From Minisyncoccota bacterium (GTDB lineage: Bacteria > Patescibacteriota > Minisyncoccia > SW-4-49-11), in NCBI GenBank assembly GCA_032117235.1, contig JAULZW010000004.1:1-51422 (forward strand): 51,422 bases of DNA. The letters are read 5' to 3'. The notes under the pieces were generated by a model, which had not been told where the DNA came from, searched no databases, and worked only from the letters and a program-made list of their open reading frames with translations. A program made the position numbers and the translations under genes. The stretch's first letter is position 1. The number at the start of each line of letters is the position of its first letter. This document shows positions 1,828 through 51,375 of this stretch, in pieces.

Positions 1828-3054
1828 TTAATTAAGTATGACTCTCACAAAATTTCTCTTACCTTTCTGTAAGACAAACCCGTCTTTTTTTATTGTAAGT
1901 TCCTGATTGGAATGTATAATATCTCCATCAATTTTGACTCCATTTTGTTCTATAATTCTTTTTACTTCACTTTTGCTTCCTGCCAAGCCTGTCTCAAGTA
2001 AAAGGTCAGTTAAAAATAAACTTTGTTTAGTAGTAGTAAATTCTGGGATATCAGTAGGTATATCTTTATTTTGAAAAGTATTAATAAAATATTCTTCAGC
2101 TTTTTTAGCTAATTCTTCACCGTGATAAATTTTTGTAATTTCAAAAGCTAATCTCATTTTTAAGTCTTTTGGATTTACAAGATTAAGTTTTAATTCTTTT
2201 TGCATTTTATCAATATTTTCTAAACTTTCATAAGTACAATCCACAAAAAGCTGAAATATATTCTCATCTGGCTGAGCCATTATTTTTCCATATATATCAA
2301 TATTATTCATATCCAAAAACACTCCGGTACCTAGACTCTTGGACATCATTTTCTCTTTGGTAATTGGATTTTCTAATAAAGTTGTAATTATTATAAACTT
2401 TTCTTTATTTTTATATCTTTGTAAAAGAGTTCTTCCACACAGAGCATTAAATTTTTGGTCATTACCACATATTTCAACATCTACATCTAAGTGAACACTA
2501 TCATAGCCCTGCATTAAAGGATAAAAAAATTCATGTACATAAATTGGTTTTTCCTCTTTTAATCTTTTTTCAAACATATCTCTCTCAAGCATTCTCTGAA
2601 CGGTAAAATTTGAAGCTAAGTCTATAACATCTTCAAAATTCATTTTGGACAGCCAATCATGATTATAGACAATTTCTACAGGATTATCTTTATCATCAAA
2701 AGAAATAATTGGACTTAATTGTTTAATCCAAGTTTGAGTATTCTCAATTACTTGTTCGCGGGACAGCTGTACTCTTGTAGCTGTTTTATCTGTGGGATCT
2801 CCTATTCTAGCTGTAAAATCTCCAATTAAAAGTATTATTTTATGACCTAATTTTCTGATTTTTTCTAAAAGTATATAATTTGTAGCATGTCCAATATGCA
2901 AAGCTGGGCCAGTGGCATCTGCTCCAATATAAAGTTTCATTTGTCTCCCAGACATCAATTCTTTTTTTAAATCCTCTTTGGATGGAAGAATCTCAACAAT
3001 ACTACGGGATAGTATTTCATCAATAATTTTTTCATCTACAGTAATTTTATTCAT
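1828..3054 (-). CDS. tyrS: tyrosyl-tRNA synthetase
   Basis: Class I motifs HIGH (ALHIGHAT) and KMSKS (KMMSKSLG). C-terminal S4-like RNA-binding domain (SKSEVKRIIEQNGVKIDG). Confidence 0.9.
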   Translation of the reverse strand: MNKITVDEKIIDEILSRSIVEILPSKEDLKKELMSGRQMKLYIGADATGPALHIGHATNYILLEKIRKLGHKIILLIGDFTARIGDPTDKTATRVQLSREQVIENTQTWIKQLSPIISFDDKDNPVEIVYNHDWLSKMNFEDVIDLASNFTVQRMLERDMFEKRLKEEKPIYVHEFFYPLMQGYDSVHLDVDVEICGNDQKFNALCGRTLLQRYKNKEKFIIITTLLENPITKEKMMSKSLGTGVFLDMNNIDIYGKIMAQPDENIFQLFVDCTYESLENIDKMQKELKLNLVNPKDLKMRLAFEITKIYHGEELAKKAEEYFINTFQNKDIPTDIPEFTTTKQSLFLTDLLLETGLAGSKSEVKRIIEQNGVKIDGDIIHSNQELTIKKDGFVLQKGKRNFVRVILN

Positions 3055-3137
3055 AATACCAATTATGTTTAAATAATTTATGTATGTATATTACATTATT
3101 TTTATATTTTATACTAGTTATGTTAATATATTTTGAT

Positions 3138-3166
3138 TTGACAGATTCAAACAATGAATATATAAT
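3138..3166 (+). promoter_or_regulatory. sigma-70-type promoter upstream of nusA
   Basis: TTGACA (3138-3143), 17-nt spacer, TATAAT (3161-3166). Perfect consensus. Confidence 0.6.
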
Positions 3167-3275
3167 ATAGTGTATATATGATATGGGTAATTTATTATGG
3201 ATCTGCTTTTTAGATAAAAAAGTAGATCTATTTTAGTTAATATGATATCATTATATTAACACTAAGAATATTGAT

Positions 3276-4511
3276 ATGTTAAATGCTAAACAATTTACTT
3301 TTGCCATAACCCAAATTGCAGAGGAAAAAAATATACCAGAAGAAAAAATAATAGAAGTAATTGAAACTGCCATAGCTGCCGCTTATAAAAAAGACTATGG
3401 TGAAAAAAGTCAGATCATTAAATCTAAGCTTAATAAAGACTCAGGTATTTTCTCCATTTTTAGACATAAAACTGTGGTTAATGTTGATGAAGAAGGTTTT
3501 ATTGTGTTGAGTGAGGATCAAAATACTGACGACTTAGGACCTATTCAAGAGGAGATTACAGATGGTGTTAGAAAAATCAGATTTAATCCAGACAGGCATA
3601 TTTCTATTGCTGACGCTCAGTCTATCCAGTCAGAAATACAAGAGGGAGAAGAAATTGTAGAGGAATTAGAGCCAAAAGAAGATTTTGGTAGAGTGGCAGC
3701 TCAAACTGCTAAACAGGTCTTGATGCAGAAAATACGTGAAATTGAGAGAACTACTGCTTTTGAGGCTTATAAAGATAGAGTGGGGGAAATTATTGCTGGA
3801 ACCATTCATAGAATGGATAGGGGGATTATATTCGTAGATCTTGGTAAAGGAGTTGGATTATTGTTTCCATCCGAGCAAGTTTATGCTGACAATTATCGTA
3901 TAGGTAATAGACATAAATTTTTAATTCAAAATGTAGAGACTACCGAGAGAGAACCTAATATTGTTTTATCTAGAAGAAGTACTGATTTTGTCAAAACATT
4001 GTTTGCCTTGGAAGTTCCAGAAATATTTGCAGGTTCGGTTGAGATAGTTTCTATTGCAAGAGATGCTGGTGTTAGAACTAAGTTATCAGTCAAAGCTAAC
4101 GGAGATGGTATTGACCCAGTCGGAGCTTGCGTAGGACAGAGGGGAACTAGAGTACAGTCTATCATTAATGAATTAGGTGGAGAAAAAATTGACATTATAG
4201 AATACTCTGATAATTTAGAGGATTATATTAAAGCTGCTATTGCTCCAGCTAAAGTAGAAGGTATTACTATTGATGAGGATAATAGACAAGCTATTGTTAT
4301 AGTACCACAAGATCAGTTGTCTTTAGCTATTGGTGGATCTGGACAAAATGTTAGATTAGCCTCTAGATTAACTGGCTATGATATTAACTTGAATCCAGAG
4401 TCTAAAAATGAAGCTTCTAAAGCTGTTGATACAGTTAAAGTTGCTATGGACAATGATGTTCAAGAAGCGATTATTGAAGATAATGTTACTAATACAGAGT
4501 CTGATATATAA
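3276..4511 (+). CDS. nusA: transcription termination/antitermination factor NusA
   Basis: N-terminal NusA domain, S1-like region, then two KH modules (GACVGQRGTRVQSIINELGGEKIDII; LSLAIGGSGQNVRLASRLTGYDINL). Confidence 0.9.
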   Translation: MLNAKQFTFAITQIAEEKNIPEEKIIEVIETAIAAAYKKDYGEKSQIIKSKLNKDSGIFSIFRHKTVVNVDEEGFIVLSEDQNTDDLGPIQEEITDGVRKIRFNPDRHISIADAQSIQSEIQEGEEIVEELEPKEDFGRVAAQTAKQVLMQKIREIERTTAFEAYKDRVGEIIAGTIHRMDRGIIFVDLGKGVGLLFPSEQVYADNYRIGNRHKFLIQNVETTEREPNIVLSRRSTDFVKTLFALEVPEIFAGSVEIVSIARDAGVRTKLSVKANGDGIDPVGACVGQRGTRVQSIINELGGEKIDIIEYSDNLEDYIKAAIAPAKVEGITIDEDNRQAIVIVPQDQLSLAIGGSGQNVRLASRLTGYDINLNPESKNEASKAVDTVKVAMDNDVQEAIIEDNVTNTESDI

Positions 4512-37702: not shown

Positions 37703-37824
37703 GAGGGGTGCCTTCTTTTAGACGGTGGGGTGGAAGTGTTTTGAAACTTGAACTTCTGTCCCCCTTTGGAGGGGGTGCCTGAAAGGTGGGGGTGGATTAC
37801 TTTTTGCAACTTGAATTTCTGTCC
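37703..37824 (+). repeat. two tandem GC-rich ~56-59-nt units (37703-37761, 37769-37824)
   Basis: gaggggtgcc..ggtggggtgga..gaaacttgaacttctgtcc versus gagggggtgcc..ggtgggggtgga..gcaacttgaatttctgtcc. A related stretch lies at 50974-51010. Confidence 0.8.
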
Positions 37825-38201: not shown

Positions 38202-40046
38202 ATGGCACAAGGTCAAAATTCCCATTTTGAGGCACAGCTTTTCAAGGCAGCAGATAAACTTCGTAAAAATATTGATGCAGCAGAATATAAAAATGTAGCT
38301 CTTGGACTTATTTTTCTTAAATATATTTCAGAATCTTTTCAAGAACTTTATGACAAATTAGCTCAGGATGAATTCAGTGATCCAGAAGACAGAGATGAAT
38401 ATATTGCCGAGAATATTTTCTTTGTACCCGAACAGGCAAGATGGAAAAATCTCCAAGCCAAAGCAAAACTCCCAACTATTGGACAAGAGCTTGATGAGGC
38501 AATGGAGGTAATCGAGAAAGAAAATCCCGAGCTCAAAAACGTACTACCCAAAGTATTTGGAAAGCCTAATTTAGATAAAGCTTCACTCGGACAATTGATT
38601 GACCTTATTTCTAATACAGAATTACAAGTAGAAAATACTAAATCCAACCTGCCTACCGGAGCTTCGGCGCAGGCAGGAGATTTATTTGGAAGAGTATATG
38701 AATATTTTCTTGGAGAATTTGCCAATGCCGAAGGGAAAAAGGGAGGACAATTCTATACCCCTAAATCCATAGTAAAACTAATGGTAGAAATGATAGAACC
38801 CTACAAAGGTCGTGTCTATGATCCCGCTTGTGGTTCTGGAGGAATGTTTGTGATGAGTGAAAAATTTGTACAAGAACACTCAGGAAATATCAAAGACATC
38901 ACTATTTATGGACAAGAATCCAATCAAACAACTTGGAAGCTCTCCAAAATGAATCTTGCAATCCGTAATATAAACTCACAATTTGTAGCTTGGAATACCG
39001 AAGGAAGTTTTCTCAAAGATGCACATCCTGACCTCAAAGCCGACTATATTCTCGCAAATCCTCCATTTAATCAATCAGATTGGGGAGTAGATATACTTCA
39101 AGATGATGCAAGGTGGAAATATGGAAAACCACCAGCAGGGAATGCTAATTTTGGATGGATGGAGCATATGTTATATCACCTTGCACCTCATGGAGTAATG
39201 GCAACTGTACTAGCTAATGGAAGCCTTAGCTCCAATACTTCAGGAGAAGGAGAAATCCGCAAAACTTTGATTCAATATGATTTGGTGGAATGTATCGTTG
39301 CACTCCCAAAGCAACTATTTTATAATACTGGAATACCCGCCTGTATTTGGATATTGAGAAGAGAAAGAACAACACGCCTGCCTGGCAGTCAGACAGGCAA
39401 TAAAGAAATTCTCTTCATCGATGCCTCAGATATGGGATTCCTCAAAGACCGAGTTCATAGAGAATTTACTGAAGAAGATATAGACACTATTGCCAACACC
39501 TATCATAATTGGCGAAAAAATCCTGAACAATACGAGGATATCAAAGGCTTTTGTAAATCAGCACAAAGGGATGAAGTAGAGAAACATGGTTTTGTTCTCA
39601 CTCCTGGACGCTATGTAGGGATTAAAGATGCAGAAGATGACCTGCCTGCGCCGAAGCCGAACACATTTTATGTTTATGTTATCAAATGTAGTAATGATAC
39701 CTTATATATTGGGCAAACACAAGATTTGAGGAAAAGATGGAAAGAACATATTCTAGGAAAAGCTTCTGACTGGACAAAAAAATATCCACCAAAATTTATT
39801 ATTCACCATGAAATATTCTCTACAAGAGAAGATGCAGTTAATCGAGAAAAAGAATTAAAAACAACCAATGGAAGAAGATATTTGAAAAAAATTATTGAAG
39901 ACGGATCGGCGAGGCAGGCAGGCGGAATACCATTTGAAGAGAAAATGCAAAAACTCACTACCACTCTTGCTGAGCAATTTGCCAAAGAAGAAAAAATGAA
40001 TGTAGAAATCAAAAAGCAACTTGCTAAAATTGGATTTAGTATTTAA
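38202..40046 (+). CDS. hsdM: type I restriction-modification methyltransferase subunit HsdM carrying an internal GIY-YIG domain
   Basis: HsdM N-domain ([31 protein letters not shown]), AdoMet motif [10 protein letters not shown], motif IV NPPFN, C-terminal helix [17 protein letters not shown]. At 614 aa it is ~110 aa longer than the ~500 aa usual for HsdM; the excess is accounted for by three GC-rich inserts. Confidence 0.92.
38648..38677. repeat. 30-nt GC-rich palindromic insert, family 1 (CCTGCCT...AGGCAGG), in frame in hsdM
   Basis: cctgcctaccggagcttcggcgcaggcagg, read as [10 protein letters not shown]. Its reverse complement shares its first 17 nt (cctgcctgcgccgaagc) with the left end of the GIY-YIG insert at 39641. 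Confidence 0.8.
39376..39398. repeat. 23-nt hairpin insert, family 2 (GCCTGCCTGG-n4-CAGACAGGC), in hsdM
   Basis: gcctgcctggcagtcagacaggc matches 21 of 23 nt of 44015-44037 in hsdR. The 9-nt arms pair with one mismatch. Confidence 0.75.
39641..39922 (+). mobile_element. 282-nt TIR-bounded in-frame insert encoding a GIY-YIG (URI/UPF0213-like) nuclease domain
   Basis: The left end is cctgcctgcgccga. The right end ...tcggcgaggcaggcagg has the reverse complement cctgcctgcctcgccga. The inverted terminal repeat is therefore CCTGCCTG + CGCCGA with a 3-nt indel. The cargo encodes [28 protein letters not shown]...[12 protein letters not shown]. The length is divisible by 3. It sits in the linker where ordinary HsdM reads ...GRYVG..EDD-(G)EPFEEKM.... 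Confidence 0.7.
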
Positions 40047-40058
40047 AAAATAATAAAT

Positions 40059-41063
40059 ATGCCTCAATTAACAAACTATCAAAATCTCGCTCAAGATATA
40101 ACAAAAATTCTTGAAAATGGTAGAAATCAAGCTGTATCAAATGTAAATACAATACTCCTTCAAACATATTGGAAAGTGGGAAAAAGTATTGTTGAATTTG
40201 AGCAAAAAGGAAATGTAAAGGCAGAATATGGCAAAGAATTACTCATTTCATTATCCAAAGAACTTAAAAAATATGGGAAAGGATTTAGTAGAAGCAATTT
40301 GCAGTATATGCGGCTTTTGTATATATTTTTTCCAGATTTGCCAGACAGGTCTGGCAGATTGACTTGGAGTCATTATGTGGAGATTTTGGGAGTTTCAGAC
40401 GAGCTTGCTCGTAGTTTTTATGAAAAACAATGTATCTTAGAAAATTGGTCGGTCAGAGAGCTAAAAAGACAAAAACAATCAATGTTATTTGAAAGATTTG
40501 CTCTTGGGAAAAATAAGGAAGAAATTTTGGAGCTTTCACATAAGGGGCAAACAATTCAAAAAGCACAAGATATTATTAAAGAGCCATATATTCTTGAATT
40601 TCTTGGTATACCAGAGCCTCATAATTTTTCAGAAGCTGAACTAGAACAAAAAATTATTGATAACTTGCAAATGTTTTTATTAGAACTTGGAAAAGGTTTT
40701 ACTTTTATCAAAAAGCAATTTCGCATTAGTTTTGATAGTCGTCATCATTATATAGATCTGGTGTTTTATCATCGTATTTTGAAGTGTTTTGTGCTTATTG
40801 ATCTCAAAATCGGCGAGGCTGATCATGTAGATGTAGGTCAGATGAATATGTATCTCAATTATTTCAAGACAGAAGAAAACACCGAAGGAGACAATGAACC
40901 AATCGGAATAATTCTTAGTGCTGAAAAGAATGACATCAAGATGGAATATGCAATGGGCGGAATCAGCAATCAGATGTTTGTATCTAAATATCAACTCTAT
41001 CTCCCAAAACCAGAAGAGTTAGAGGCAGAAATAGAGAATTTTTTATCTCACAATGGAAAATAA
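40059..41063 (+). CDS. YhcG-like PD-(D/E)xK nuclease (DUF1016 family)
   Basis: LTWSHYVEIL block and a C-terminal nuclease core (IDLVFYHRILKCFVLIDLKIGE). This family is often embedded in type I R-M loci. Confidence 0.8.
   Translation: MPQLTNYQNLAQDITKILENGRNQAVSNVNTILLQTYWKVGKSIVEFEQKGNVKAEYGKELLISLSKELKKYGKGFSRSNLQYMRLLYIFFPDLPDRSGRLTWSHYVEILGVSDELARSFYEKQCILENWSVRELKRQKQSMLFERFALGKNKEEILELSHKGQTIQKAQDIIKEPYILEFLGIPEPHNFSEAELEQKIIDNLQMFLLELGKGFTFIKKQFRISFDSRHHYIDLVFYHRILKCFVLIDLKIGEADHVDVGQMNMYLNYFKTEENTEGDNEPIGIILSAEKNDIKMEYAMGGISNQMFVSKYQLYLPKPEELEAEIENFLSHNGK
40339..40356. repeat. perfect 8+8 palindrome tgccagac-ag-gtctggca inside the DUF1016 gene
   Basis: Read directly. It shares the CTGGCAGA / CAGACAGG strings with the family 2 hairpins. 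It encodes DLPDRSGR where relatives usually have a short loop before LSWSHY. Confidence 0.6.
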
Positions 41064-42393
41064 TATGACAGATAAACTACAAAAAAGTAATTTTGTAAAC
41101 TCCACATCCTCGCCAACACAAAACAACAATGTGTCTTCATTGAATAATCCCGTAGAGTCGGCGCCCTCGCCGACATATTCCAACATATCCTCGCCGACAT
41201 ATCCTCAAGACTGGCAAGAGACGACTTTGGGGGAGGTTTGTGAGATCAAAGGTGGGAAGAGGTTGCCAAAAGGAGAAACCCTTGTATTAGAAAAAACAAG
41301 TCATCCATACATTCGTATAACTGATCTTGAAAATAATCAAATCAAAAAGCATCAATTACAATTTGTTACTGATGAAGCTTTTCAAAACATTTCGAGGTAT
41401 ATTGTAAATACTGGTGATGTAATTGTCTCTATTGTTGGAAGTATTGGTTTTGTTGCCTTCATTGATGAAGATTTGGATAATGCTAGTTTAACTGAAAACT
41501 GTGTGAAATTCGTTAACCTAAAAAATCTTGATTCAAAATTTTTATATTACTTTTTAATCTCAAAAAATGGGCAAGAAGAAATAGCTAAAAATACAGTTGG
41601 AGCTGTACAAAAGAAGTTGCCAATTTATGGAGTCCAAAATATTCAACTCCTCCTCCCACCTCTCCCAGAACAAAAAGCCATCGCCTCAGTATTAAGTAGC
41701 TTTGATGATAAGATTGAGCTTTTGCGAGAGCAAAATAAAACATTAGAAGAGATGGGGCAGAACATATTCAAAGAATGGTTCCTGCCTAGCCGCCCGTCTG
41801 TCGGTCGGACAGGGCAGGCAGGTGGGAAGTATGGTGTAGATAATCCTAACGACTTGCCTGAGGACTGGAGAATCGGGAAGTTGGGGGATATCTGTGAAAT
41901 TACATCAGGTAAAAGACCAGAAAATATAAGTGATACAAAAATAGGTATACAACAAATTCCGGTACTTGGAGCAACAAAAATTATGGGATATGTAGATAAA
42001 TATTTATTTGACGGAAAAACACTTGTAATTGGAAGAGTTGGAACTCATGGGGAGGTTCAAAGGTTTAATGAAAAAATATTTCCATCTGATAATACTCTAG
42101 TTTTAAAATCTGATAATTTTATTTTTGTATATCAAATTTTGAAAAGTATTGATTATGTAAAAATGAATAGAGGTGGAGTTCAGCCCCTTATTACACAAAC
42201 AGATTTGAAAAATTATGAGATTATAATTCCAAGTAATGAATTATTGAAAAAGTTCAAAGAAACAATAAATCCAGTATTCGAAAAAATAGATAAAAATAAT
42301 GTTCAAATCCAATTCCTCGCTCGAACTCGTGATGAGCTTTTACCAAAATTGATGAGTGGGCATGTGAGGGTGAATTATCAAGATAAACTATGA
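41053..42393 (+). CDS. hsdS: type I R-M specificity subunit HsdS (two TRDs)
   Basis: It has TRD1, the central conserved helix LPPLPEQKAIASVLSSFDDKIELLREQNKTLEEMGQNIFKEWF, TRD2, and the distal conserved helix (RTRDELLPKLMSG). The N-terminal ~50 aa are low-complexity and REP-derived. Confidence 0.88.
   Translation: MENNMTDKLQKSNFVNSTSSPTQNNNVSSLNNPVESAPSPTYSNISSPTYPQDWQETTLGEVCEIKGGKRLPKGETLVLEKTSHPYIRITDLENNQIKKHQLQFVTDEAFQNISRYIVNTGDVIVSIVGSIGFVAFIDEDLDNASLTENCVKFVNLKNLDSKFLYYFLISKNGQEEIAKNTVGAVQKKLPIYGVQNIQLLLPPLPEQKAIASVLSSFDDKIELLREQNKTLEEMGQNIFKEWFLPSRPSVGRTGQAGGKYGVDNPNDLPEDWRIGKLGDICEITSGKRPENISDTKIGIQQIPVLGATKIMGYVDKYLFDGKTLVIGRVGTHGEVQRFNEKIFPSDNTLVLKSDNFIFVYQILKSIDYVKMNRGGVQPLITQTDLKNYEIIIPSNELLKKFKETINPVFEKIDKNNVQIQFLARTRDELLPKLMSGHVRVNYQDKL
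41151..41174 (+). repeat. REP (GTAG + hairpin), + orientation, inside the hsdS 5' region
   Basis: cGTAGa gtcggcg ccct cgccgac, read as VESAPSPT. Right-arm half copies cctcgcc(g/a)ac also occur at 41108-41117 and 41189-41198. Confidence 0.8.
41781..41822. repeat. 42-nt GC-rich palindromic insert, family 1, in frame in hsdS
   Basis: cctgcctagccgcccgtctgtcggtcggacagggcaggcagg, read as LPSRPSVGRTGQAG. It lies directly after the central conserved helix and uses the same L-P...Q-A-G reading phase as 38648 and 39641. Confidence 0.75.
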
Positions 42394-43274
42394 GAATCTC
42401 ATCAAAAACAATAGATTACCTAAAGGACATTATCACTGGAGATTCTAAGAAAACTAGATATTTATCAGGTCCCCAGCTTGTGGAGTTTTTTAATGAGCTT
42501 GGGTGGCAAGATATATATGGACAAGGGTTTCCTAGTAGGTGGGAATATACAAAGAGAAAATTATTTGAATTAAATCAACTAGATAGGATTGAAGAAATAA
42601 TAGAGCATTATTATAGCCCAATAAATTTTATTGAAGATAAAGAGGGATATAAATATTTAATTAAAGAATTGAATGAATATCTTGCTTTTGAGGATCTTGA
42701 GCTAAAAGTGGAAACTAAAACAGTAAAATTACAACCCAAAATAAATGTCGGCGAGGGCGCCGACTCTACGAAATTCAAGGATGCCGACTGGGGAGACGAC
42801 TATACGAAACAAATTTCAATCAATTTAGAACAATTAAATATAGACCCTAAATTGACTGAAATAATAAAATATCGTTTAATAGAGATCCAAAGAGGTATAG
42901 AAAATAATTGTCCTTTATCAGTTATTATTTTAGTAGGTTCAATATTAGAAGCTGTATTTTTCGATTTAGCACATAAGAATAAGCCGTTATTTAATAGAGC
43001 ACATGCTAGTCCTAAAATTTCTGATAAAGTAAAATTTTTTGGAGAATGGACACTTGGGAACTATATTGATGTTGCAAAAGAATTGGGATATATAAAAGAA
43101 GATCAAAAAAAGTTTAGTATGATATTGAGAGATTTTAGAAATTATATACATCCATCCAAGCAATTAACAGAAGATTTTCATCCTAGCATAGATACAGCTA
43201 AGCAATGTATTTATGTATTAGAGGGTTCTATAAATCAAATTATTGCAAAGACAGAATATGAAAAGGAAAAATAA
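42390..43274 (+). CDS. hypothetical R-M-embedded protein with a C-terminal HEPN-like RxxRNxxH motif
   Basis: The start overlaps the hsdS stop (ATGA). The C-terminal helical region contains ILRDFRNYIHP. It carries an in-frame REP (VGEGADSTKF). Confidence 0.6.
   Translation: MRISSKTIDYLKDIITGDSKKTRYLSGPQLVEFFNELGWQDIYGQGFPSRWEYTKRKLFELNQLDRIEEIIEHYYSPINFIEDKEGYKYLIKELNEYLAFEDLELKVETKTVKLQPKINVGEGADSTKFKDADWGDDYTKQISINLEQLNIDPKLTEIIKYRLIEIQRGIENNCPLSVIILVGSILEAVFFDLAHKNKPLFNRAHASPKISDKVKFFGEWTLGNYIDVAKELGYIKEDQKKFSMILRDFRNYIHPSKQLTEDFHPSIDTAKQCIYVLEGSINQIIAKTEYEKEK
42747..42772 (-). repeat. REP, - orientation, inside ORF 42390..43274
   Basis: gtcggcg aggg cgccgac tCTACgaa. The 45-nt block 42744-42788 matches 43711-43755 at 41 of 45 positions. 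Confidence 0.85.
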
Positions 43275-43920
43275 TCGTTTATCAAATGATTTGTATCAAG
43301 GCGGGTATTGGTATTTTATCACCTTATGCTCTTATAATATGCAATGTATTTTTGTAGAGTCGGCGCCCTCGCCGACACAATCAAGTCAAAAATACAAACT
43401 TAATCACTTGGGGAAAATTATTGAAAAAGTGTGGTTGAATACAACTCAATGTTATTCGGATATTATTCTTGATGAATATGTTATTATGCCGAACCATTTT
43501 CATGGTATAATTGGACTTGATGAGAATTCTTGTTCTTCGGTGACAAGAAAAAAGGTGAGTTTGGGGGATGTGGTCAGTTCGTTTAAGAGTGTTTCTTTGA
43601 GGGAGTTTAAGGAGAGTGTCGGCGGGGGTGTGAGGGAAAATGTCGGCGAAGATTTGAATGACAATGTCGGCGAGGGCGCCGACTCTACGAAGTTCGGTGA
43701 TGTGAAGTACAATGTCGGCGAGGGTGCCGACTCTACGAAGTTTAAGGGTGCCGACTCTACGAAGTCTACTTTGAATAAATATGGAACTTTCTGGCAAAAA
43801 TCTTTTTATGACCATATTATTAGAAATGATAAAGATTTATTTCGTATACAGGAATATATTATAAATAACCCTATAAATTGGGAAATGGATTCTCTGCATC
43901 CTAACAACTTTAATAAATGA
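43243..43920 (+). CDS. REP-associated tyrosine transposase (RAYT; Y1/HUH, IS200-like, COG1943 type)
   Basis: It shows YWYFITLCSYN, the HUH motif in VIMPNHFHGII, the C-terminal block FWQKSFYDHIIRNDKDLFRIQEYIINNP, and the candidate catalytic Tyr in QEYIINNP. An alternative start lies at 43258. The ORF stays open despite REP-derived inserts. Confidence 0.75.
   Translation: MQRQNMKRKNNRLSNDLYQGGYWYFITLCSYNMQCIFVESAPSPTQSSQKYKLNHLGKIIEKVWLNTTQCYSDIILDEYVIMPNHFHGIIGLDENSCSSVTRKKVSLGDVVSSFKSVSLREFKESVGGGVRENVGEDLNDNVGEGADSTKFGDVKYNVGEGADSTKFKGADSTKSTLNKYGTFWQKSFYDHIIRNDKDLFRIQEYIINNPINWEMDSLHPNNFNK
43353..43376 (+). repeat. REP, + orientation, inside the RAYT gene
   Basis: tGTAGa gtcggcg ccct cgccgac, read as VESAPSPT in the same frame as the hsdS copy. 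Confidence 0.85.
43616..43763 (-). repeat. phased array of full and partial REPs inside the RAYT gene
   Basis: Left arms gtcggcg occur at 43618, 43642, 43666 and 43714. Full REPs lie at 43666-43691 and 43714-43739, with a right-arm half at 43746-43763. Spacings are 24 or 48 nt. The array reads ...NVGEGADSTKFGDVKYNVGEGADSTKFKGADSTKS. Confidence 0.85.
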
Positions 43921-43924
43921 CAAT

Positions 43925-46900
43925 ATGCCTACCCTCAACGAATCCCATATAGAACAGAATTTGATAGATCTCCTTGTAGCTCAGGGCTATGAGTATTTTT
44001 ATGGTCTGGATATTGCCTGCCTGGCTGGCAGACAGGCTCCGTATTCGGCAAGTCCACAAAGAGAAAGTTTTAATAGTGTTATATTGGAAAATCATCTCAA
44101 GGAATCTCTCAAAAGATTGAATCCAGATATCCCTGAATCGGCTCGGCATGAGGCTTATCAGCATATTATAAATCTTGGCTCTGCTGATTTGATGGCGAAT
44201 AATGAAAAATTTCATACTTATTTGACTGATGGGATTACGGTTGAATATGTCAAACCTGCCAATGAGTCAGGCGGGGATAATGCTACAAAGGGTATCAATG
44301 TTAAGCTTCTTGATTTGGAGAATGTCTCAAACAATATCTTTTGGGTGGTGAATCAATTCGTTATCAAAGAGAATAATAATGAGAAGAGATTAGATTTGGT
44401 GATTTTTGTGAATGGGCTTCCTTTGGTTGTGGTGGAGTTGAAGAATGCTACTGATGAAAAGGCTACTTTGGAGAGGGCTTTTACTCAAATTCAGAATTAC
44501 AAAAAAGCTGTTCCGAGTATTTTTTATTATAATGCTTTATGTATTATCTCGGATGGGATTGATGCTCGTATGTCGAGTGTGTCTGCTCCTTTTGAGCGAT
44601 TTGTTGCTTGGAAGTCTCCTGAGAAAAAGGAGAATGGGATTGTGCCTGAAATGCAGATTATGGCTGAAAAAATGCTTAATCCTGAGGTTTTGCTTCGATT
44701 GATTCGATATAATACGGTTTTTGAACAAGAGGAGCAAAAGGATGAAAAAACGGGGTTATTATCTGTGGTGAAGATTAAGAAAATTGCTGCCTATCATCAA
44801 TATTATGCGGTGGAAAAGGCGGTTAAGGAAACTTTGAGGGCTACTCATTCTGATGAGGGTAATAGGAAAATTGGGGTGATTTGGCATACTCAAGGTTCGG
44901 GGAAGTCTTTGTCTATGGTGTTTTATACGGGGCAAATTGTGGTGGAACCAGAGATGAAGAATCCGACTATTGTTATTTTGACGGATAGGAATGATCTTGA
45001 TGATCAGTTATTCACGACTTTTGGAAATTGTAAGCAATTATTAAGGCAAACTCCTATGCAAGCGGAAAGTCGTGAGCATTTAAAAGAGCTTCTCAAGGTT
45101 GCTGGGGGTGGTATTATTTTTACAACTATTCAAAAATTTGCTCCTCGTGAGGGGAATGTGTATGAGACTTTATCTGAGCGGTCGAATATTGTGGTTGTGG
45201 CGGATGAGGCTCATCGTAGTCAATATGGATTCAAGGGGCGAGAGGTAGAAACGGTGGATGGGTCTGAAATTCGATATGGGAATGCTAAGTATCTGAGGGA
45301 TGCTTTGCCGAGGGCTTCTTTTATTGGATTTACGGGGACACCGATTGAAAGGGAAGATAGATCTACAAGAAATGTGTTTGGTGATGAAATTGATATTTAT
45401 GATATTAAACAGGCGGTGGATGATGGGGCTACGGTGCCGATTAGTTATGAATCGCGGTTGGTTAAAATTAAATTGAATAAGGAGTTGGTCAATAAAATTG
45501 ATTATGCTATTGATGAGATTGAAGGTGCTACTGAGGAGCAAAAGGAAAAGGCGAAAAAGAAAAATGCTCAAATTGATGCGGTGGTTGGTCATCCTGATAG
45601 ATTAAAGGATTTGGCTAAGGATATTGTGGAGCATTTTGAGGCGAGGCAAAGAACCTTTGAGGGGAAGGCGATGGTGGTATGTATGACAAGGCAAATTGCG
45701 GTTTGGTTATATAAGGAAATTATTGCTCTTCGTCCTGATTGGCATAGTGATGAATTGATGCAAGGGAAGCTCAAAATTGTGATGACTTCAAGTAGTGATG
45801 ATCCTGAAGATTTTCAAGCTCATCATACGAATAAGAAGGATAGAAAAAAACTTGCTCTGAGGCTCAAGGATATCAATGATCCTCTTCAAATGGTGATTGT
45901 GCAATCTATGTGGTTGACGGGATTTGATGTGCCGTGTTTGCATACGATGTATATTGATAAAAAGATGCAGGGTGCTAATTTGATGCAGGCTATTGCTCGG
46001 GTTAATCGGGTATATAAGGATAAACCAGGAGGATTGATTGTGGATTATATTGGTATTGGTCAGGATCTTAGAAAGGCAATGGGGGTTTATACTCAAAGTG
46101 GGGGAGAAGGTCAAGCTGTGTCGGATATTGCAGAGGCAATTGCTGGTATGAAGACCAAATTTGAGATTGTGGAGCAAATGTTCCACCAGCCTTTGCCAAG
46201 TCTTCGTCTGGCAGGTGGCTTTGAATATAAAAATTATTTTAAGGCTGAGAGTAGTGAAAAATTACATATTTTATTGGGGGCTACAAACTTTATTTTGCAA
46301 AATGATAATCTAAAAAATAGGTTTTTGACGGAAGTGACTGCTTTGTCTAAGTTATTTGCGATGGCTGTTCCAAGTTTTGAGGCTGAGCAAGTAAGAGATG
46401 AAGTTGCATTCTTCCAAGCGGTTAAAGCCCGTATCAATAAATTTACACCTAGTGGGGGAGTCTCAGACAGGCAGGTCGAAACGGCGGTAAGACAAATTGT
46501 AGAAGAAGCTCTGGCGAGTGATGGAGTGGTGGATGTGTTCGAGGCTGCGGGGATGAAAACTCCGACACTGGACATTCTATCAGAGGAATTTTTGCTTGAG
46601 GTCAAAAATATGGAGCAAAAAAATCTTGCCTTTGAACTTCTTCGTAAGCTCCTGAATGATGAGGTAAAATTGCGAAAAAGAAAAAATATGGCTCAAGGAA
46701 AAAAGTTTTCTGAGATGCTTGAGAGTGTAATCAATAGGTATCATAATAATCAAATTGATACGGCTCAAGTGATTCAGGAACTTTCAGAAATTGCTCGGGC
46801 GATGAAATTGGAGGACAAAAAAGCAGAAGATATTGGACTTACTCCAGAAGAATATGCATTTTATAGTGTACTTGCTCAGAATGATTCTACGAAATTTTTA

Positions 46901-47119
46901 GATGATCATAAAATGAAAGAACTAATTCATGTTATTGTTGATATTATTCGCAAAAATGCTACAGTTGATTGGGAAAAACGAGAGGATGTTAGAGCTAAAC
47001 TTCGCCTTACGGTCAAAAAAATTCTCATGAGATATGGCTATCCACCTGATCTTGCAAGAATAGAAGCTGATAAAGTTCTGGAACAGAGTGAACTATTGGC
47101 TAAGGAATTGACGCAGTAG
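43925..47119 (+). CDS. hsdR: type I restriction enzyme R subunit HsdR
   Basis: N-terminal nuclease region, SF2 helicase motif I TQGSGKS, motif II VVADEAHRSQ, and later motifs (QAIARVNR). 1064 aa. Confidence 0.93.
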   Translation: MPTLNESHIEQNLIDLLVAQGYEYFYGLDIACLAGRQAPYSASPQRESFNSVILENHLKESLKRLNPDIPESARHEAYQHIINLGSADLMANNEKFHTYLTDGITVEYVKPANESGGDNATKGINVKLLDLENVSNNIFWVVNQFVIKENNNEKRLDLVIFVNGLPLVVVELKNATDEKATLERAFTQIQNYKKAVPSIFYYNALCIISDGIDARMSSVSAPFERFVAWKSPEKKENGIVPEMQIMAEKMLNPEVLLRLIRYNTVFEQEEQKDEKTGLLSVVKIKKIAAYHQYYAVEKAVKETLRATHSDEGNRKIGVIWHTQGSGKSLSMVFYTGQIVVEPEMKNPTIVILTDRNDLDDQLFTTFGNCKQLLRQTPMQAESREHLKELLKVAGGGIIFTTIQKFAPREGNVYETLSERSNIVVVADEAHRSQYGFKGREVETVDGSEIRYGNAKYLRDALPRASFIGFTGTPIEREDRSTRNVFGDEIDIYDIKQAVDDGATVPISYESRLVKIKLNKELVNKIDYAIDEIEGATEEQKEKAKKKNAQIDAVVGHPDRLKDLAKDIVEHFEARQRTFEGKAMVVCMTRQIAVWLYKEIIALRPDWHSDELMQGKLKIVMTSSSDDPEDFQAHHTNKKDRKKLALRLKDINDPLQMVIVQSMWLTGFDVPCLHTMYIDKKMQGANLMQAIARVNRVYKDKPGGLIVDYIGIGQDLRKAMGVYTQSGGEGQAVSDIAEAIAGMKTKFEIVEQMFHQPLPSLRLAGGFEYKNYFKAESSEKLHILLGATNFILQNDNLKNRFLTEVTALSKLFAMAVPSFEAEQVRDEVAFFQAVKARINKFTPSGGVSDRQVETAVRQIVEEALASDGVVDVFEAAGMKTPTLDILSEEFLLEVKNMEQKNLAFELLRKLLNDEVKLRKRKNMAQGKKFSEMLESVINRYHNNQIDTAQVIQELSEIARAMKLEDKKAEDIGLTPEEYAFYSVLAQNDSTKFLDDHKMKELIHVIVDIIRKNATVDWEKREDVRAKLRLTVKKILMRYGYPPDLARIEADKVLEQSELLAKELTQ
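44015..44037. repeat. 23-nt hairpin insert, family 2, in the hsdR N-terminal region
   Basis: gcctgcctggctggcagacaggc, read as ACLAGRQA. Partner at 39376-39398. Confidence 0.75.
46464..46475. repeat. half-site cagacaggcagg of the GC-rich palindrome families, in hsdR
   Basis: String match only; no paired arm found nearby. Confidence 0.35.
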
Positions 47120-48904: not shown

Positions 48905-49885
48905 ATGAATACAAAACCGCATACAATTATTTATCAAGCAAAAAATGGTGCTATTGAGTTGAAGGGTGACTGGACTCAGGATACGATTTGGGCTAGTCAA
49001 GCTCAGATTGCTGAACTTTTTGCTGTAGATAGATCAGTGGTAACAAGACATATTAAAAATATTTTTTTAGATAGGGAATTGGATGCAAAAGTGGTTAGTG
49101 CAAAATTTGCACAGACCACTTCTCACGGAGCTTTAAAAGGTAAGACGCAAACAAAAAATGTGACTTTTTATAATTTAGACATTATTCTGGCAGTTGGTTA
49201 TAGAACAAAATCTTCTATGGCAGTTACCTTTCGTCAATGGGCTACACAAACATTAAAACAGTATATTACGAAAGGATATAGTATTAATAAAAAAGTATTG
49301 GCCCAGAATTATGATGAGTTTCTCAAGGCTATTGAGACGATTAAGACCTTAATCCCTGTAAATAGTGAGGTTAAGACTGGTGATGCTTTAGAATTGGTTA
49401 AGTTTTTTGCTGAGACTTGGTTTGCTCTTGATGCGTATGACAAATCTGATTTGCCACAATCAGGTCTCAATAAGTCTCAAGTGGAATTCACTGCTGATGA
49501 ATTAATACAAGCTTTGGTTGAGCTAAAGCAAGATTTGTATAAAAAGAAGATGGCTACTGAGTTATTTGGACAAGAAAAACAACCTAATGCGATAGCAGGA
49601 ATTGTTGGTAATATTTTTCAATCTGCTTTTGGGGAAGAGATATATCCTTCTATTGAAGAGAAGGCTGCCCATTTATTATATTTTATTATTAAAAATCATC
49701 CTTTGAATGATGGAAATAAAAGATCAGGTGCTTTTGCTTTTATTTGGCTTTTGAATAAGACCAAAACATTGAATACTTCTAAAATAACTCCCCAAGTATT
49801 GACTACATTAACCCTATTGGTTGCTGAAAGTGATCCTCACAATAAAGATCAAATTATAGGTTTGATTCTACAAATATTGAAGTAA
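48905..49885 (+). CDS. RhuM-family N-terminal domain fused to a Fic/Doc domain (Doc-type GNKR motif)
   Basis: The RhuM block is WASQAQIAELF..DRSVVTRHIKNIF...YNLDIILAVGYRTKSSMAVTFRQWATQTLKQYITKGY. The C-terminal motif HPLNDGNKRSG fits the Doc variant HxFx(D/N)(A/G)NKR. Confidence 0.8.
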   Translation: MNTKPHTIIYQAKNGAIELKGDWTQDTIWASQAQIAELFAVDRSVVTRHIKNIFLDRELDAKVVSAKFAQTTSHGALKGKTQTKNVTFYNLDIILAVGYRTKSSMAVTFRQWATQTLKQYITKGYSINKKVLAQNYDEFLKAIETIKTLIPVNSEVKTGDALELVKFFAETWFALDAYDKSDLPQSGLNKSQVEFTADELIQALVELKQDLYKKKMATELFGQEKQPNAIAGIVGNIFQSAFGEEIYPSIEEKAAHLLYFIIKNHPLNDGNKRSGAFAFIWLLNKTKTLNTSKITPQVLTTLTLLVAESDPHNKDQIIGLILQILK

Positions 49886-49910: not shown

Positions 49911-49996
49911 GGCGACGAGAGGTCGCCCCTACGAAAAATAATGTCGGCGGGGTCGCCGACTCTACGAAATAATGGAGGGACTAAAGCCCTACGAGG
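49911..49996 (-). repeat. intergenic cluster of three hairpin+CTACGA REP units
   Basis: The three units are ggcgac-gagag-gtcgcc cCTACgaa (49911-49935), gtcggcg-gggt-cgccgac tCTACgaa (49943-49968) and aggg-actaaag-ccct-ACGA with CTAC at 49989-49992. Confidence 0.8.
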
Positions 49997-50054: not shown

Positions 50055-50903
50055 ATGTCTAACACTCACAATAAAATAGCTTTATTTGAAAAGAAACAAA
50101 TTCGTAAAATTTGGTATAATGATGAATGGTATTTTTCGGTAATAGATATAGTCGGGGCTTTAACCGAATCAGCAGACCCAAAAGACTATTGGTATAGGAT
50201 CAAAAAAAGAGCTACTGATGAAGAAGGAATTGAACTATCGACAATTTGTCGACAGTTGAAATTAGTTGCTCCAGATGGAAAAATGAGAGAAACCGACTGT
50301 GCTAATACCGAAGACATACTTAGAATTATCCAATCTATTCCCTCCCCCAAAGCTGAACCATTCAAAAGATGGTTAGCTAAAGTAGGGTATGAGAGAATAG
50401 AAGAGATAGAAAACCCAGAACTTGCTCAAGAAAGGATGAAAAAACTATATGAAGCAAAAGGATATCCTCAAGATTGGATAGACAAGAGACTTCGTGGAAT
50501 AGCAATTCGCCAAAACCTCACCGATGAATGGCAAGCAAGAGGCATCACTGGACAAAAAGATTATGCAATACTCACAGCCGAGATCAGCAAAGCAACTTTT
50601 GGTATAACCCCAAGCGAATATAAAAAACTCAAAAATATACCAGCAAAATCCAAAGCCAATCTCAGAGATAATATGACAGATTTGGAGCTTATTTTTACTA
50701 TGCTTGGAGAACGAGTCACCACAGAAATCTCCAAAACAGAAAACCCAAAAGGAATGACCGAAAATAAAAAAGTAGCCCAGAGGGGAGGAACTGTAGCTGG
50801 TAATGCTAGAAAAGAAACAGAAAAAGAATTGGGTAAAAGTGTTATTAGTAAAGAAAATTATTTGGGAGATAATAAAAAACCTCTAATTAATAAAAAGAAA
50901 TAA
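50055..50903 (+). CDS. Bro-N domain DNA-binding protein (antirepressor-like)
   Basis: N-terminal FEKKQIRKIWYNDEWYFSVIDIVGALT fits the Bro-N pattern. The conserved C-terminal region contains NLRDNMTDLEL and GGTVAGNARKE. Confidence 0.7.
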   Translation: MSNTHNKIALFEKKQIRKIWYNDEWYFSVIDIVGALTESADPKDYWYRIKKRATDEEGIELSTICRQLKLVAPDGKMRETDCANTEDILRIIQSIPSPKAEPFKRWLAKVGYERIEEIENPELAQERMKKLYEAKGYPQDWIDKRLRGIAIRQNLTDEWQARGITGQKDYAILTAEISKATFGITPSEYKKLKNIPAKSKANLRDNMTDLELIFTMLGERVTTEISKTENPKGMTENKKVAQRGGTVAGNARKETEKELGKSVISKENYLGDNKKPLINKKK

Positions 50904-50969: not shown

Positions 50970-51171
50970 TCTCTCTTTGGAGGGAGTACCCGAATTAAGA
51001 CTGGAAGTCTGGGAAAGGGGTCGGGAAAACGGGAGTTTTCCCGTGGAGGAAGGTTGGGAAACCGTGAGGTTTCACAGGAGTAAATCCTATTTGCGACGGG
51101 TGAGGGTGGATAAAATACATTGTGAATTTTTAGGGTACATAAAAAGCCCCCCAGCAAAGTGCTGAGGGGGC
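50970..51171 (+). other. GC-rich structured non-coding region (candidate RNA or degenerate element) at the right island border
   Basis: There are four hairpins. The first is ctctc-tttgga-gggag. The second is agact-gga-agtct. The third is cgggaaaac-GGGA-gttttcccg (51022-51043), a perfect 9-bp stem with a GNRA loop. The fourth is gaaacc-GTGA-ggtttc (51058-51073), also GNRA-capped. The overlapping tracked ORFs on both strands are low-complexity. Confidence 0.4.
51141..51171 (-). terminator. rho-independent terminator read on the minus strand
   Basis: The minus strand reads gccccctcagca-ctt-tgctggggggc followed by tttttat: an ~11-bp stem with one bulge. Confidence 0.45.
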
Positions 51172-51375
51172 GGGGGTAGATGTTAGTAGTTTCGGAGGGT
51201 TGTGGCTACATTTTTAAGACTAGTAATTATTAATTTACACTCGTTCCAATCATCTTCATCAATCCCAGTTTCTTCAACCTCAGTTTCTTCAAACCCCGCA
51301 TATTCTATAATCAAAAGCACCACTACGGTATATACTAAATAAGTAGTGGCATGTATAAGCTAAGAAATAGAATAT

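Follow-up and report, generated by a model that had tools for sequence, protein, structure and literature searches.

GC-rich palindromes in frame in a patescibacterial type I restriction-modification operon, and a GIY-YIG nuclease cassette with the same ends

How do short GC-rich palindromes come to lie in frame inside bacterial genes in an AT-rich stretch of DNA? The question is raised by a contig of a Minisyncoccota bacterium (JAULZW010000004.1, assembly GCA_032117235.1), whose positions 1 to 51,422 we analyzed and call the window. An earlier note on this DNA had pointed to two such palindromes with the ends CCTGCCT...AGGCAGG, one of 30 nt in hsdM and one of 42 nt in hsdS, and had taken both for insertions. 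They lie exactly where it placed them, GC-rich in a window of 31.9% G+C. The list of open reading frames (ORFs) and the Pfam domains of the window's proteins show that a type I restriction-modification operon encloses both. Our results suggest that these short palindromes, which we call minis, are probably the non-autonomous hairpin counterparts of a GIY-YIG nuclease cassette that depends on host translation, the cassette nuclease moving both.

Insertions in hsdM, hsdS and hsdR

The 30-nt mini (38648-38677, forward strand; CCTGCCTACCGGAGCTTCGGCGCAGGCAGG) encodes amino acids 150-159 of HsdM and is a diverged copy, with 3 mismatches, of a widespread 30-mer, CCTGCCTGCCGAAGCCTCGGCGCAGGCAGG. The 42-nt mini (41781-41822, forward strand; CCTGCCTAGCCGCCCGTCTGTCGGTCGGACAGGGCAGGCAGG) reads LPSRPSVGRTGQAG in hsdS (41053-42393, forward strand; 446 amino acids, Pfam Methylase_S E = 2e-45). 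Two further copies, outside the earlier note's list, are each 21 nt long and on the forward strand. One lies in hsdM (39377-39397; CCTGCCTGGCAGTCAGACAGG, variant CCTGCCTG/CAGACAGG) and reads LPGSQTG; the other (44016-44036; CCTGCCTGGCTGGCAGACAGG) reads CLAGRQA in hsdR (43925-47119, forward strand; 1064 amino acids, Pfam HSDR_N, SWI2_SNF2 and T1RH-like_C). The core ends of this family, family 1, are CCTG[C/T]CTG...CAG[G/A]CAGG, and its minis in the window measure 21-42 nt. The pattern CCTGCCT-N5-35-AGGCAGG has only two matches in the window (38648-38677 and 41781-41822) and none in 100 dinucleotide-preserving shuffles; the heptamer CCTGCCT/AGGCAGG occurs 15 times where 3.15 occurrences are expected.

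Every window copy has a length divisible by three (3n) and lies inside an open frame. The 30-nt and 42-nt minis both begin at codon position 3, at offset 446 from the hsdM ATG (38202) and offset 728 from the hsdS ATG (41053). The inverted termini, 3n lengths and common phase described earlier all hold. The hsdR mini is in a codon phase unlike that of the other window copies. The linker positions proposed for the two original minis are borne out as well: the hsdM copy sits between HsdM_N (amino acids 10-136) and N6_Mtase (amino acids 158-479), and in the alignment the hsdS copy directly follows the central conserved helix (...NIFKEWF). In a structure model of HsdM (mean pLDDT 65, moderate) the hsdM minis fall in low-confidence loops, 144-159 and 391-399.

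All copies are predicted to fold as bulged hairpins, which answers the fold check that the note had asked for. The predicted DNA fold of the 42-nt mini has -13.2 kcal/mol (z = -3.6). This mini appears to be composite, a hairpin CCCGTCTG...CGGACAGGG nested within a short hairpin CCTGCCT...GCAGGCAGG, a reading suggested by its own sequence and by composite copies elsewhere.

The note had also claimed that the same termini bound a nuclease unit. They do: the C-terminal linker of hsdM holds a GIY-YIG cassette of 282 nt (39641-39922, forward strand), or 94 codons reading LPAPKPN...ARQAG, with a Pfam GIY-YIG match at E = 3e-14. Its left end (CCTGCCTGCGCC / CCTGCCTGCGCCG) and right end (GGCAGGCAGG) pair with each other and extend the termini to a covarying stem (see below). 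The cassette is read in the same phase as the 30-nt and 42-nt minis. Start codon, stop codon and ribosome-binding site are all missing from it, and its expression is possible only by read-through. The reverse complement of the 30-nt mini starts with CCTGCCTGCGCCGAAGC, the very sequence of the first 17 nt of the cassette in the window; the minis are in essence the terminal stem of the cassette alone.

In protein terms the cassette is a catalytic domain only, about 80 residues within 94 amino acids. Its nearest solved structures are the UPF0213 proteins BH0048 and EF2693 (E = 5e-14), and the NCBIfam model for group I intron endonucleases matches it weakly, at 23 bits against a cut-off of 56. In the HsdM model its junctions lie in low-confidence loops (475-480 and 575-582), and the GIY-YIG domain itself is confident (pLDDT 83-92). 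The host gene (38202-40046, forward strand) encodes 614 amino acids, which the HsdM alignment resolves into an HsdM of about 503 amino acids plus inserts of 10, 7 and 94. Pfam finds HsdM_N, N6_Mtase and GIY-YIG in it and no other domain.

Comparison with orthologues shows that all of these stretches are inserts, as had been claimed for the first two. We aligned 22 HsdM homologues and, at the DNA level, three related contigs (L001-L003). All five window inserts are missing from orthologues that are 93-98% identical, and the junctions are clean. The 30-nt insert is absent from 21 of 21 aligned HsdM homologues, including 95-98% identical ones (...KSK-DLFG...), with the DNA junction TCCAA^AGATT; the sole other genome with a copy is represented by L197, a contig of a different sample that is 99% identical and has the insert at the same site. 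The 21-nt hsdM insert (junction ACACG^CAAT) occurs in the window, L003, P0001 and P0002 and is absent from P0003, P0005-8, L001 and L002. The 282-nt cassette is absent from orthologues at the junction GATGA^TGGAAT, and its 94-residue domain is carried by some close HsdM alleles and by distant ones. The 42-nt insert is missing from three HsdS orthologues (L001, L002 and L003) that share the flanks FKEWF / GKYGVD (junction TGGTT^TGGGAA). The hsdR insert is present in L001 and L002 and absent from L003 (junction GATATTG^CTCCG).

In none of the five comparisons of filled with empty sites are bases duplicated at the junctions, that is, there is no target-site duplication; at the three hsdM junctions no bases are lost. 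The inserts are distributed in a non-nested way among alleles: L001 carries the hsdR copy alone; L003 lacks that copy and carries the cassette together with the 21-nt mini of hsdM. This pattern points to independent gain or loss, or to recombination.

Two observations concern the same sites. The 30-nt mini differs from its L197 counterpart (2934-2963) at 2 of 30 bases, between strains that are 99% identical over 3.4 kb, and both substitutions give L197 perfectly complementary hairpin arms. The difference looks like correction within an imperfect palindrome or decay of the window copy. HsdM proteins of Gallionella and Mariprofundales (P0009 and P0013) carry other GC-rich in-frame inserts, PPEGGE...SPSGDLGA and SPHSLKGR (alignment columns 165-200 and 518-540), in the same loops as the window minis. 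These loops appear to be general insertion hot spots.

Constraint on the ends and spread across phyla

The ends of the cassette are constrained at the level of DNA or RNA. Among 34 cassette units of 282 nt, the terminal codons are frozen: one Pro is CCT in 33/34 and another CCG in 33/34, one Ala is GCG in 34/34 and another GCA in 34/34, and Gln is CAG in 34/34. Invariant residues of the interior use all synonymous codons, with an entropy of 1.8-2.5 bits at four- and six-fold sites. The two ends pair over 9 bp, a GC bulge, 4 bp, a 4-nt bulge and 3 bp, and across 36 distinct units 91.7% of the cells of this stem are paired. Its covariation score is 0.139 compared with 0.069 in shuffles, a value reached by 0 of 500, although relatedness of the sequences inflates covariation tests; a shift of the partner column by one to three positions makes the score collapse. 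For one pair, made of two third codon positions that lie about 250 nt from each other, we count GC 10, AU 9, GU 5, CG 4, UA 4 and other 4. Without selection for pairing it would be hard to account for synonymous sites that have changed repeatedly among four types of pair.

The cassette is spread across phyla. A profile of the 96-amino-acid module, run against a collection with one genome per species, found it in 139 places, in Bacteroidota, Planctomycetota, Desulfobacterota, Nitrospirota, Chloroflexota, Patescibacteria and one archaeal bin. In 43 of 43 copies with recognizable ends, the cassette ORF is continuous with a longer host ORF. The hosts are HsdM (at two different sites), HsdS, HsdR, SNF2-type helicases, and type IIG and DUF1156 methyltransferases, and further MsrB (L069), alanyl-tRNA synthetase (L046), a PAPS-reductase-like protein (L074) and cobalamin adenosyltransferase (L066). 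When 1.84 billion representative proteins were searched exhaustively, 316 clusters reached E <= 1e-10; among the best 150 of these, nearly all matches are internal, in proteins of 100-1100 amino acids, and include the LPAP and RQAG ends. Hosts among the representative proteins were named from flanking motifs, and the MGMT-like, TrmD-like and Nudix-like ones are recognized by motif only. A tblastn search of a plasmid collection with the cassette found no match.

A word-based protein search with the cassette returned 10 short proteins, all of them C-terminal fragments of HsdM, and compared with the exhaustive search this was misleading about site specificity. Records P0121-P0128, named 'GIY-YIG nuclease family protein', are likewise C-terminal HsdM fragments with the cassette and not free-standing nucleases. 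The name is thus an annotation artefact to which the insert has given rise.

At most cassette sites (about 37 of 41, non-homologous ones among them) GA precedes the unit and YG follows it, and the GA^YG flanks are common to many minis elsewhere. The flanks may reflect target choice, or survival in Asp-Gly-type loops.

Some loci show other arrangements. In a Zetaproteobacteria bin (L045), two GIY-YIG cassettes lie about 100 nt apart in one hsdS (locus positions 3616-3904 and 4000-4282). An HsdM ORF of an Acetothermia bin (L034, locus positions 2074-4378) holds a GIY-YIG cassette and a second in-frame nuclease insert, which resembles DUF559/Vsr-type endonucleases and is bracketed by the peptides GRGVGGEGE / GRGVGGEGD; this suggests that other nuclease families use the same in-frame strategy. 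In seven loci from Bacteroidales and other bins (L054, L057, L061, L067, L071, L076 and L078), a related GIY-YIG core lies in frame in HsdR without the LPAP/RQAG ends, and a 27-nt hairpin of a variant type, CCTGTCTGCGTGCAACGCACAGGCAG, is found about 30 nt upstream.

The minis, too, are not confined to the window. In the window and 83 related loci we found 50 minis of restriction-modification loci with the ends CCTG[C/T]CT...AG[G/A]CAGG, of which 46 have a 3n length (P = 5e-18). Most of the 50 are found inside long ORFs and in the phase giving LP/LS...QAG. On viral contigs the pattern CCTGCCTGC-N6-36-GCAGGCAGG matches 113 stretches, and among 85 matches the lengths modulo 3 are 56:13:16 (P = 9e-10). 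Clustering of the host genes on these contigs is unreliable, as in GC-rich DNA the longest open frame is often not a real gene, and was not used for counts of coding and non-coding copies.

A scan of metagenomes for the 30-nt class, with 26 fixed bases, found at least 120 stretches. Together with the copies above, this shows that further copies exist; neither of the two results that the note had named as refuting its reading was obtained. Among the matches listed, 62 of 82 are identical to CCTGCCTGCCGAAGCCTCGGCGCAGGCAGG, and the copies stand in 73 unrelated contexts on contigs of 36-68% G+C. Where long ORFs hold the 30-mer, its two orientations share one reading phase and give LPAEASAQAG or LPAPRLRQAG.

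How the elements may move

From these patterns we can only infer how the elements move. By analogy with the Ssn nuclease and its NTS repeats, and with RAYT and REP sequences (all compared below), the cassette nuclease would recognize the stem in single-stranded DNA and cut at its base. Such cutting would allow the cassette and, in trans, the minis to be excised and inserted precisely, and a host enzyme would then seal the DNA. Within genes, the survivors would be frame-keeping copies that encode a harmless Pro/Ala/Gly-rich linker. The cassette would be made as an internal domain of whichever protein it had invaded, and the minis would be read through by the ribosome.

Several points weigh against this reading. 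First, we know of no GIY-YIG enzyme that joins DNA, so the reading has to call on a ligase or a repair step supplied by the host. Second, the action of the nuclease on these hairpins is itself something that we infer; the best structural relatives of the cassette are UPF0213 proteins, and the SRM motif published for Ssn has no match in the window on either strand. Third, among the matches listed, a GIY core lies near the 30-mer in 0 of 80 metagenome loci within the fetched DNA, which fits action in trans and equally fits no link at all. Only about 40% of these 30-mer copies lie in open frames of at least 200 codons, so the mini family is not confined to genes. Fourth, 18 other minis in the related loci have no 3n bias (7:5:6), and the window's four minis lack the GA^YG flanks of most cassette sites. 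Finally, the cassettes of the window and L003 differ by 6 synonymous and 6 non-synonymous changes, too few to speak for purifying selection.

With these points counted, we still consider it probable that the minis are counterparts of the cassette and are moved by its nuclease. A wider claim would be that the elements form a new class of mobile element in bacteria and archaea: a nuclease cassette with terminal inverted repeats that lacks its own expression signals, lives solely in frame as a domain of its hosts' proteins, has a single-stranded hairpin intermediate and spawns pan-bacterial coding hairpins of 21-42 nt, which would give proteins short linkers. This wider claim is possible, and we put it forward tentatively.

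One could instead argue that the hairpins are primary and spread by other means, the cassette being a homing endonuclease gene that targets the center of the hairpin and is hence flanked by its halves. The cassette does lie exactly between the arms of a would-be mini, nested or composite minis exist (the 42-nt window copy included), and the 30-mer is dispersed with no cassette nearby among the matches listed. Insertion sequences that target REP hairpins are, moreover, an established precedent. However, alleles of the C-terminal HsdM site are either empty or hold the cassette, and a mini alone is found there in 0 of 22 aligned homologues. The arms of the cassette covary over about 250 nt, which suggests that the stem functions while the cassette is present, and no other candidate enzyme for the spread of the hairpins was found. 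Homing therefore seems to us an unlikely explanation.

It is quite unlikely that the minis are what remains of full cassettes, whether as footprints of excision or as internal deletions, and are not themselves mobile. A mini does consist of the left end of a cassette plus the right end, the 30-nt copy matches 17 nt of the resident left end, and all minis lie in tolerant loops able to hold a cassette. Leftovers would be hard to reconcile with three observations: the 30-mer occurs in 73 unrelated contexts among the matches listed; its right arm in cassette orientation, TTCGGCAGGCAGG, complements its own left arm and is no copy of the usual right end of the cassette, GCGCGGCAGGCAGG; and a full cassette is found at none of the window's four mini sites in any homologue.

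The locus itself offers another candidate enzyme, and the hairpins could be REP-type elements moved by it. An ORF at 43243-43920 is RAYT-like (NCBIfam REP_Tyr_transpos E = 9e-16, in two pieces and below the model's curated cut-off), and enzymes of the RAYT and IS200/IS605 kinds work on hairpins of single-stranded DNA without duplicating the target. But the RAYT gene goes with a separate GTAG family, GTAGAGTCGGCGCCCTCGCCGAC, and it is these family-2 repeats, not family 1, that surround and interrupt the RAYT-like ORF. Family 1 has no GTAG and has its ends in common with the GIY-YIG cassette, and family-1 copies are present in L001-L003, whose called genes include no RAYT. We regard this explanation as very unlikely.

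Equally improbable, in our view, is that the stem acts in mRNA (through removal of the insert, ribosomal bypass or processing) and that the DNA is not moved by the nuclease. Covariation cannot separate RNA from DNA, the outer positions of the stem include G-U-type pairs, and GC-rich hairpins that ribosomes bypass are known in AT-rich yeast mitochondria. Against this stand the 3n lengths (46/50 and 56/85) and the cassette ORF that is continuous with its host in 43/43 loci; removal or skipping is unlikely, because 3n length and an open frame would then be needless. The cassette is expressed by read-through alone, and scans of the window for Rfam families and tRNAs found no match. We reject ribosomal bypass, inteins and RNA splicing, since the lengths are biased towards 3n, the frames are continuous and there is no splicing domain.

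That the stretches are native linkers or chance palindromes can practically be dismissed: they do encode flexible Pro/Ala/Gly-rich loop peptides, but near-identical orthologues lack them (which refutes native linker sequence), 0 of 100 shuffles produce them and identical sequences recur in unrelated genes and genomes.

The surrounding island and known systems

The genome is that of a Patescibacteria bin, and its PheT protein shares 82-84% identity with proteins of Minisyncoccia and Paceibacterota bins. Within the 51-kb window, family-1 elements are confined to 37.7-44.1 kb, in the restriction-modification island. Between hsdM and hsdS lies a YhcG/DUF1016 nuclease gene (40059-41063), and between hsdS and the RAYT-like ORF a further, unassigned ORF (42390-43274). 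Genes of the RhuM/Fic and Bro-N families (48905-49885 and 50055-50903) come after the operon. The G+C content of the operon is 35-40% compared with about 30% in the housekeeping part of the window, and for this reason the block from the operon onward looks like an acquired island.

Other repeats are present. Family 2, a GTAG next to a hairpin, has the classic REP form, and 6-7 copies are clustered in and around the RAYT-like gene (41152-41174, reverse strand; 42747-42769; 43354-43376, reverse strand; 43666-43688; 43714-43736; 49943-49965). They lie in frame inside hsdS, ORF 42390-43274 and the RAYT-like ORF, where they read VGEGADSTKF. GC-rich hairpins of a third type (C5...G5) are intergenic and lie on both sides of the island (37760-37775 and 51147-51175). 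A stretch of at least 60 nt that contains AGGCAGG is present twice, at positions 7 and 1021 (within 1-70 and 1015-1085), which indicates that the first ORF (90-1676) holds a direct repeat of about 1 kb.

The earlier note had named Rickettsia palindromic elements (RPEs) as a precedent. This holds for palindromes lying in frame in ORFs, where for the window, too, co-translation is predicted from the open frames, but it is an analogy and not a family assignment. RPEs are about 100-150 bp long, fall into the families RPE-1 to RPE-8 and are not known outside Rickettsia. To our knowledge they have no autonomous partner, and we know of no enzyme identified as mobilizing them. By these descriptions the window elements are set apart, being 21-42 nt long, hosted by Patescibacteria, spread across phyla and equipped with ends common to a nuclease cassette.

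With REP sequences and RAYTs the elements share short GC-rich hairpins, an enzyme gene flanked by them, the lack of target-site duplications and a presumed action on single-stranded DNA. The differences are that the enzyme is a GIY-YIG and not an HUH/Y1 nuclease, that family 1 lacks GTAG, and that its copies are intragenic and in frame instead of extragenic; the REP/RAYT pair that adjoins them in the window is a separate family. Miniature inverted-repeat transposable elements come to mind because of the size (21-42 nt), the inverted ends CCTGCCT/AGGCAGG and the multiple copies. As ends are common to an enzyme-encoding cassette, with 17 nt identical in the window, the minis may be mobilized by it, but a target-site duplication is missing from each of the five comparisons of filled with empty sites.

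Inteins and the homing endonucleases of introns are likewise selfish nucleases, in frame in conserved host genes, expressed by the host and present or absent among close alleles. The cassette, however, has no Hint domain, and its ends are LPAP and RQAG, not Cys/Ser...His-Asn. With neither a Hint domain nor a ribozyme, the insert stays in the mature protein. It also lacks a DNA-binding domain of the I-TevI type, and it has terminal inverted repeats, miniature derivatives and many unrelated sites in place of one cognate site.

Two reports come closest. A single Slx1-like GIY-YIG insertion was described in the HsdR protein MCA0838, absent from an 80%-identical homologue, and the inserted domain was said to seem evolutionarily mobile (Dunin-Horkawicz et al. 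2006, PMC1564403). This is a single case at the protein level, and the passages that we consulted mention no conserved DNA ends, terminal stem, miniature derivatives or other hosts. The second report is that of Ssn, a single-domain GIY-YIG protein of 94 amino acids that in vitro cuts single-stranded DNA beside hairpin repeats; the repeats flank its own gene and are dispersed in hundreds of copies, an architecture that its authors liken to an insertion sequence (Chenal et al. 2025, PMC11893778). The cassette resembles Ssn in the hairpin-forming brackets around the coding sequence and in the dispersal of the same hairpins. Its GIY-YIG domain is of like size, about 94 amino acids, but never stands free in this subfamily. 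It differs in that no separate gene encodes its nuclease, which is translated as part of a host protein, and in that it is bracketed by two halves of one stem instead of two complete hairpins. The related hairpins are often in coding sequence and in frame, whereas NTS repeats lie inside genes in only 2% of cases (PMC11893778). Ssn belongs to cd10448 and the best solved relatives of the cassette are UPF0213 proteins. In full-text searches of the literature we found no description of these ends, the terminal stem, the LPAP/RQAG cassette across hosts, or the minis. The combination of an in-frame cassette with minis is apparently undescribed, the 2006 case and the 2025 account of Ssn being the related reports; a preprint of 2026 in which SsnA is mentioned proved to be unrelated.

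What would these elements mean? For annotation the consequence is direct: the inserts split or lengthen restriction-modification genes, and fragments of HsdM are labeled 'GIY-YIG nuclease family protein' in public records. In-frame insertion would explain many database proteins annotated as odd GIY-YIG fusions. Paired with a defined hairpin of 30 nt, a nuclease of 94 amino acids could be put to use in cleaving single-stranded DNA, an application already proposed for Ssn. Unlike in the case of the in-frame palindromes of Rickettsia, a candidate mobilizing enzyme and its cis-acting stem are visible in one gene. The elements may be a general source of short linkers and of whole-domain insertions, essential proteins such as alanyl-tRNA synthetase included. 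If our reading is true, inteins and self-splicing introns would be joined by a third way for a selfish nuclease to inhabit a gene and leave it intact: the nuclease would remain in the protein as one more domain, placed in a tolerant loop.

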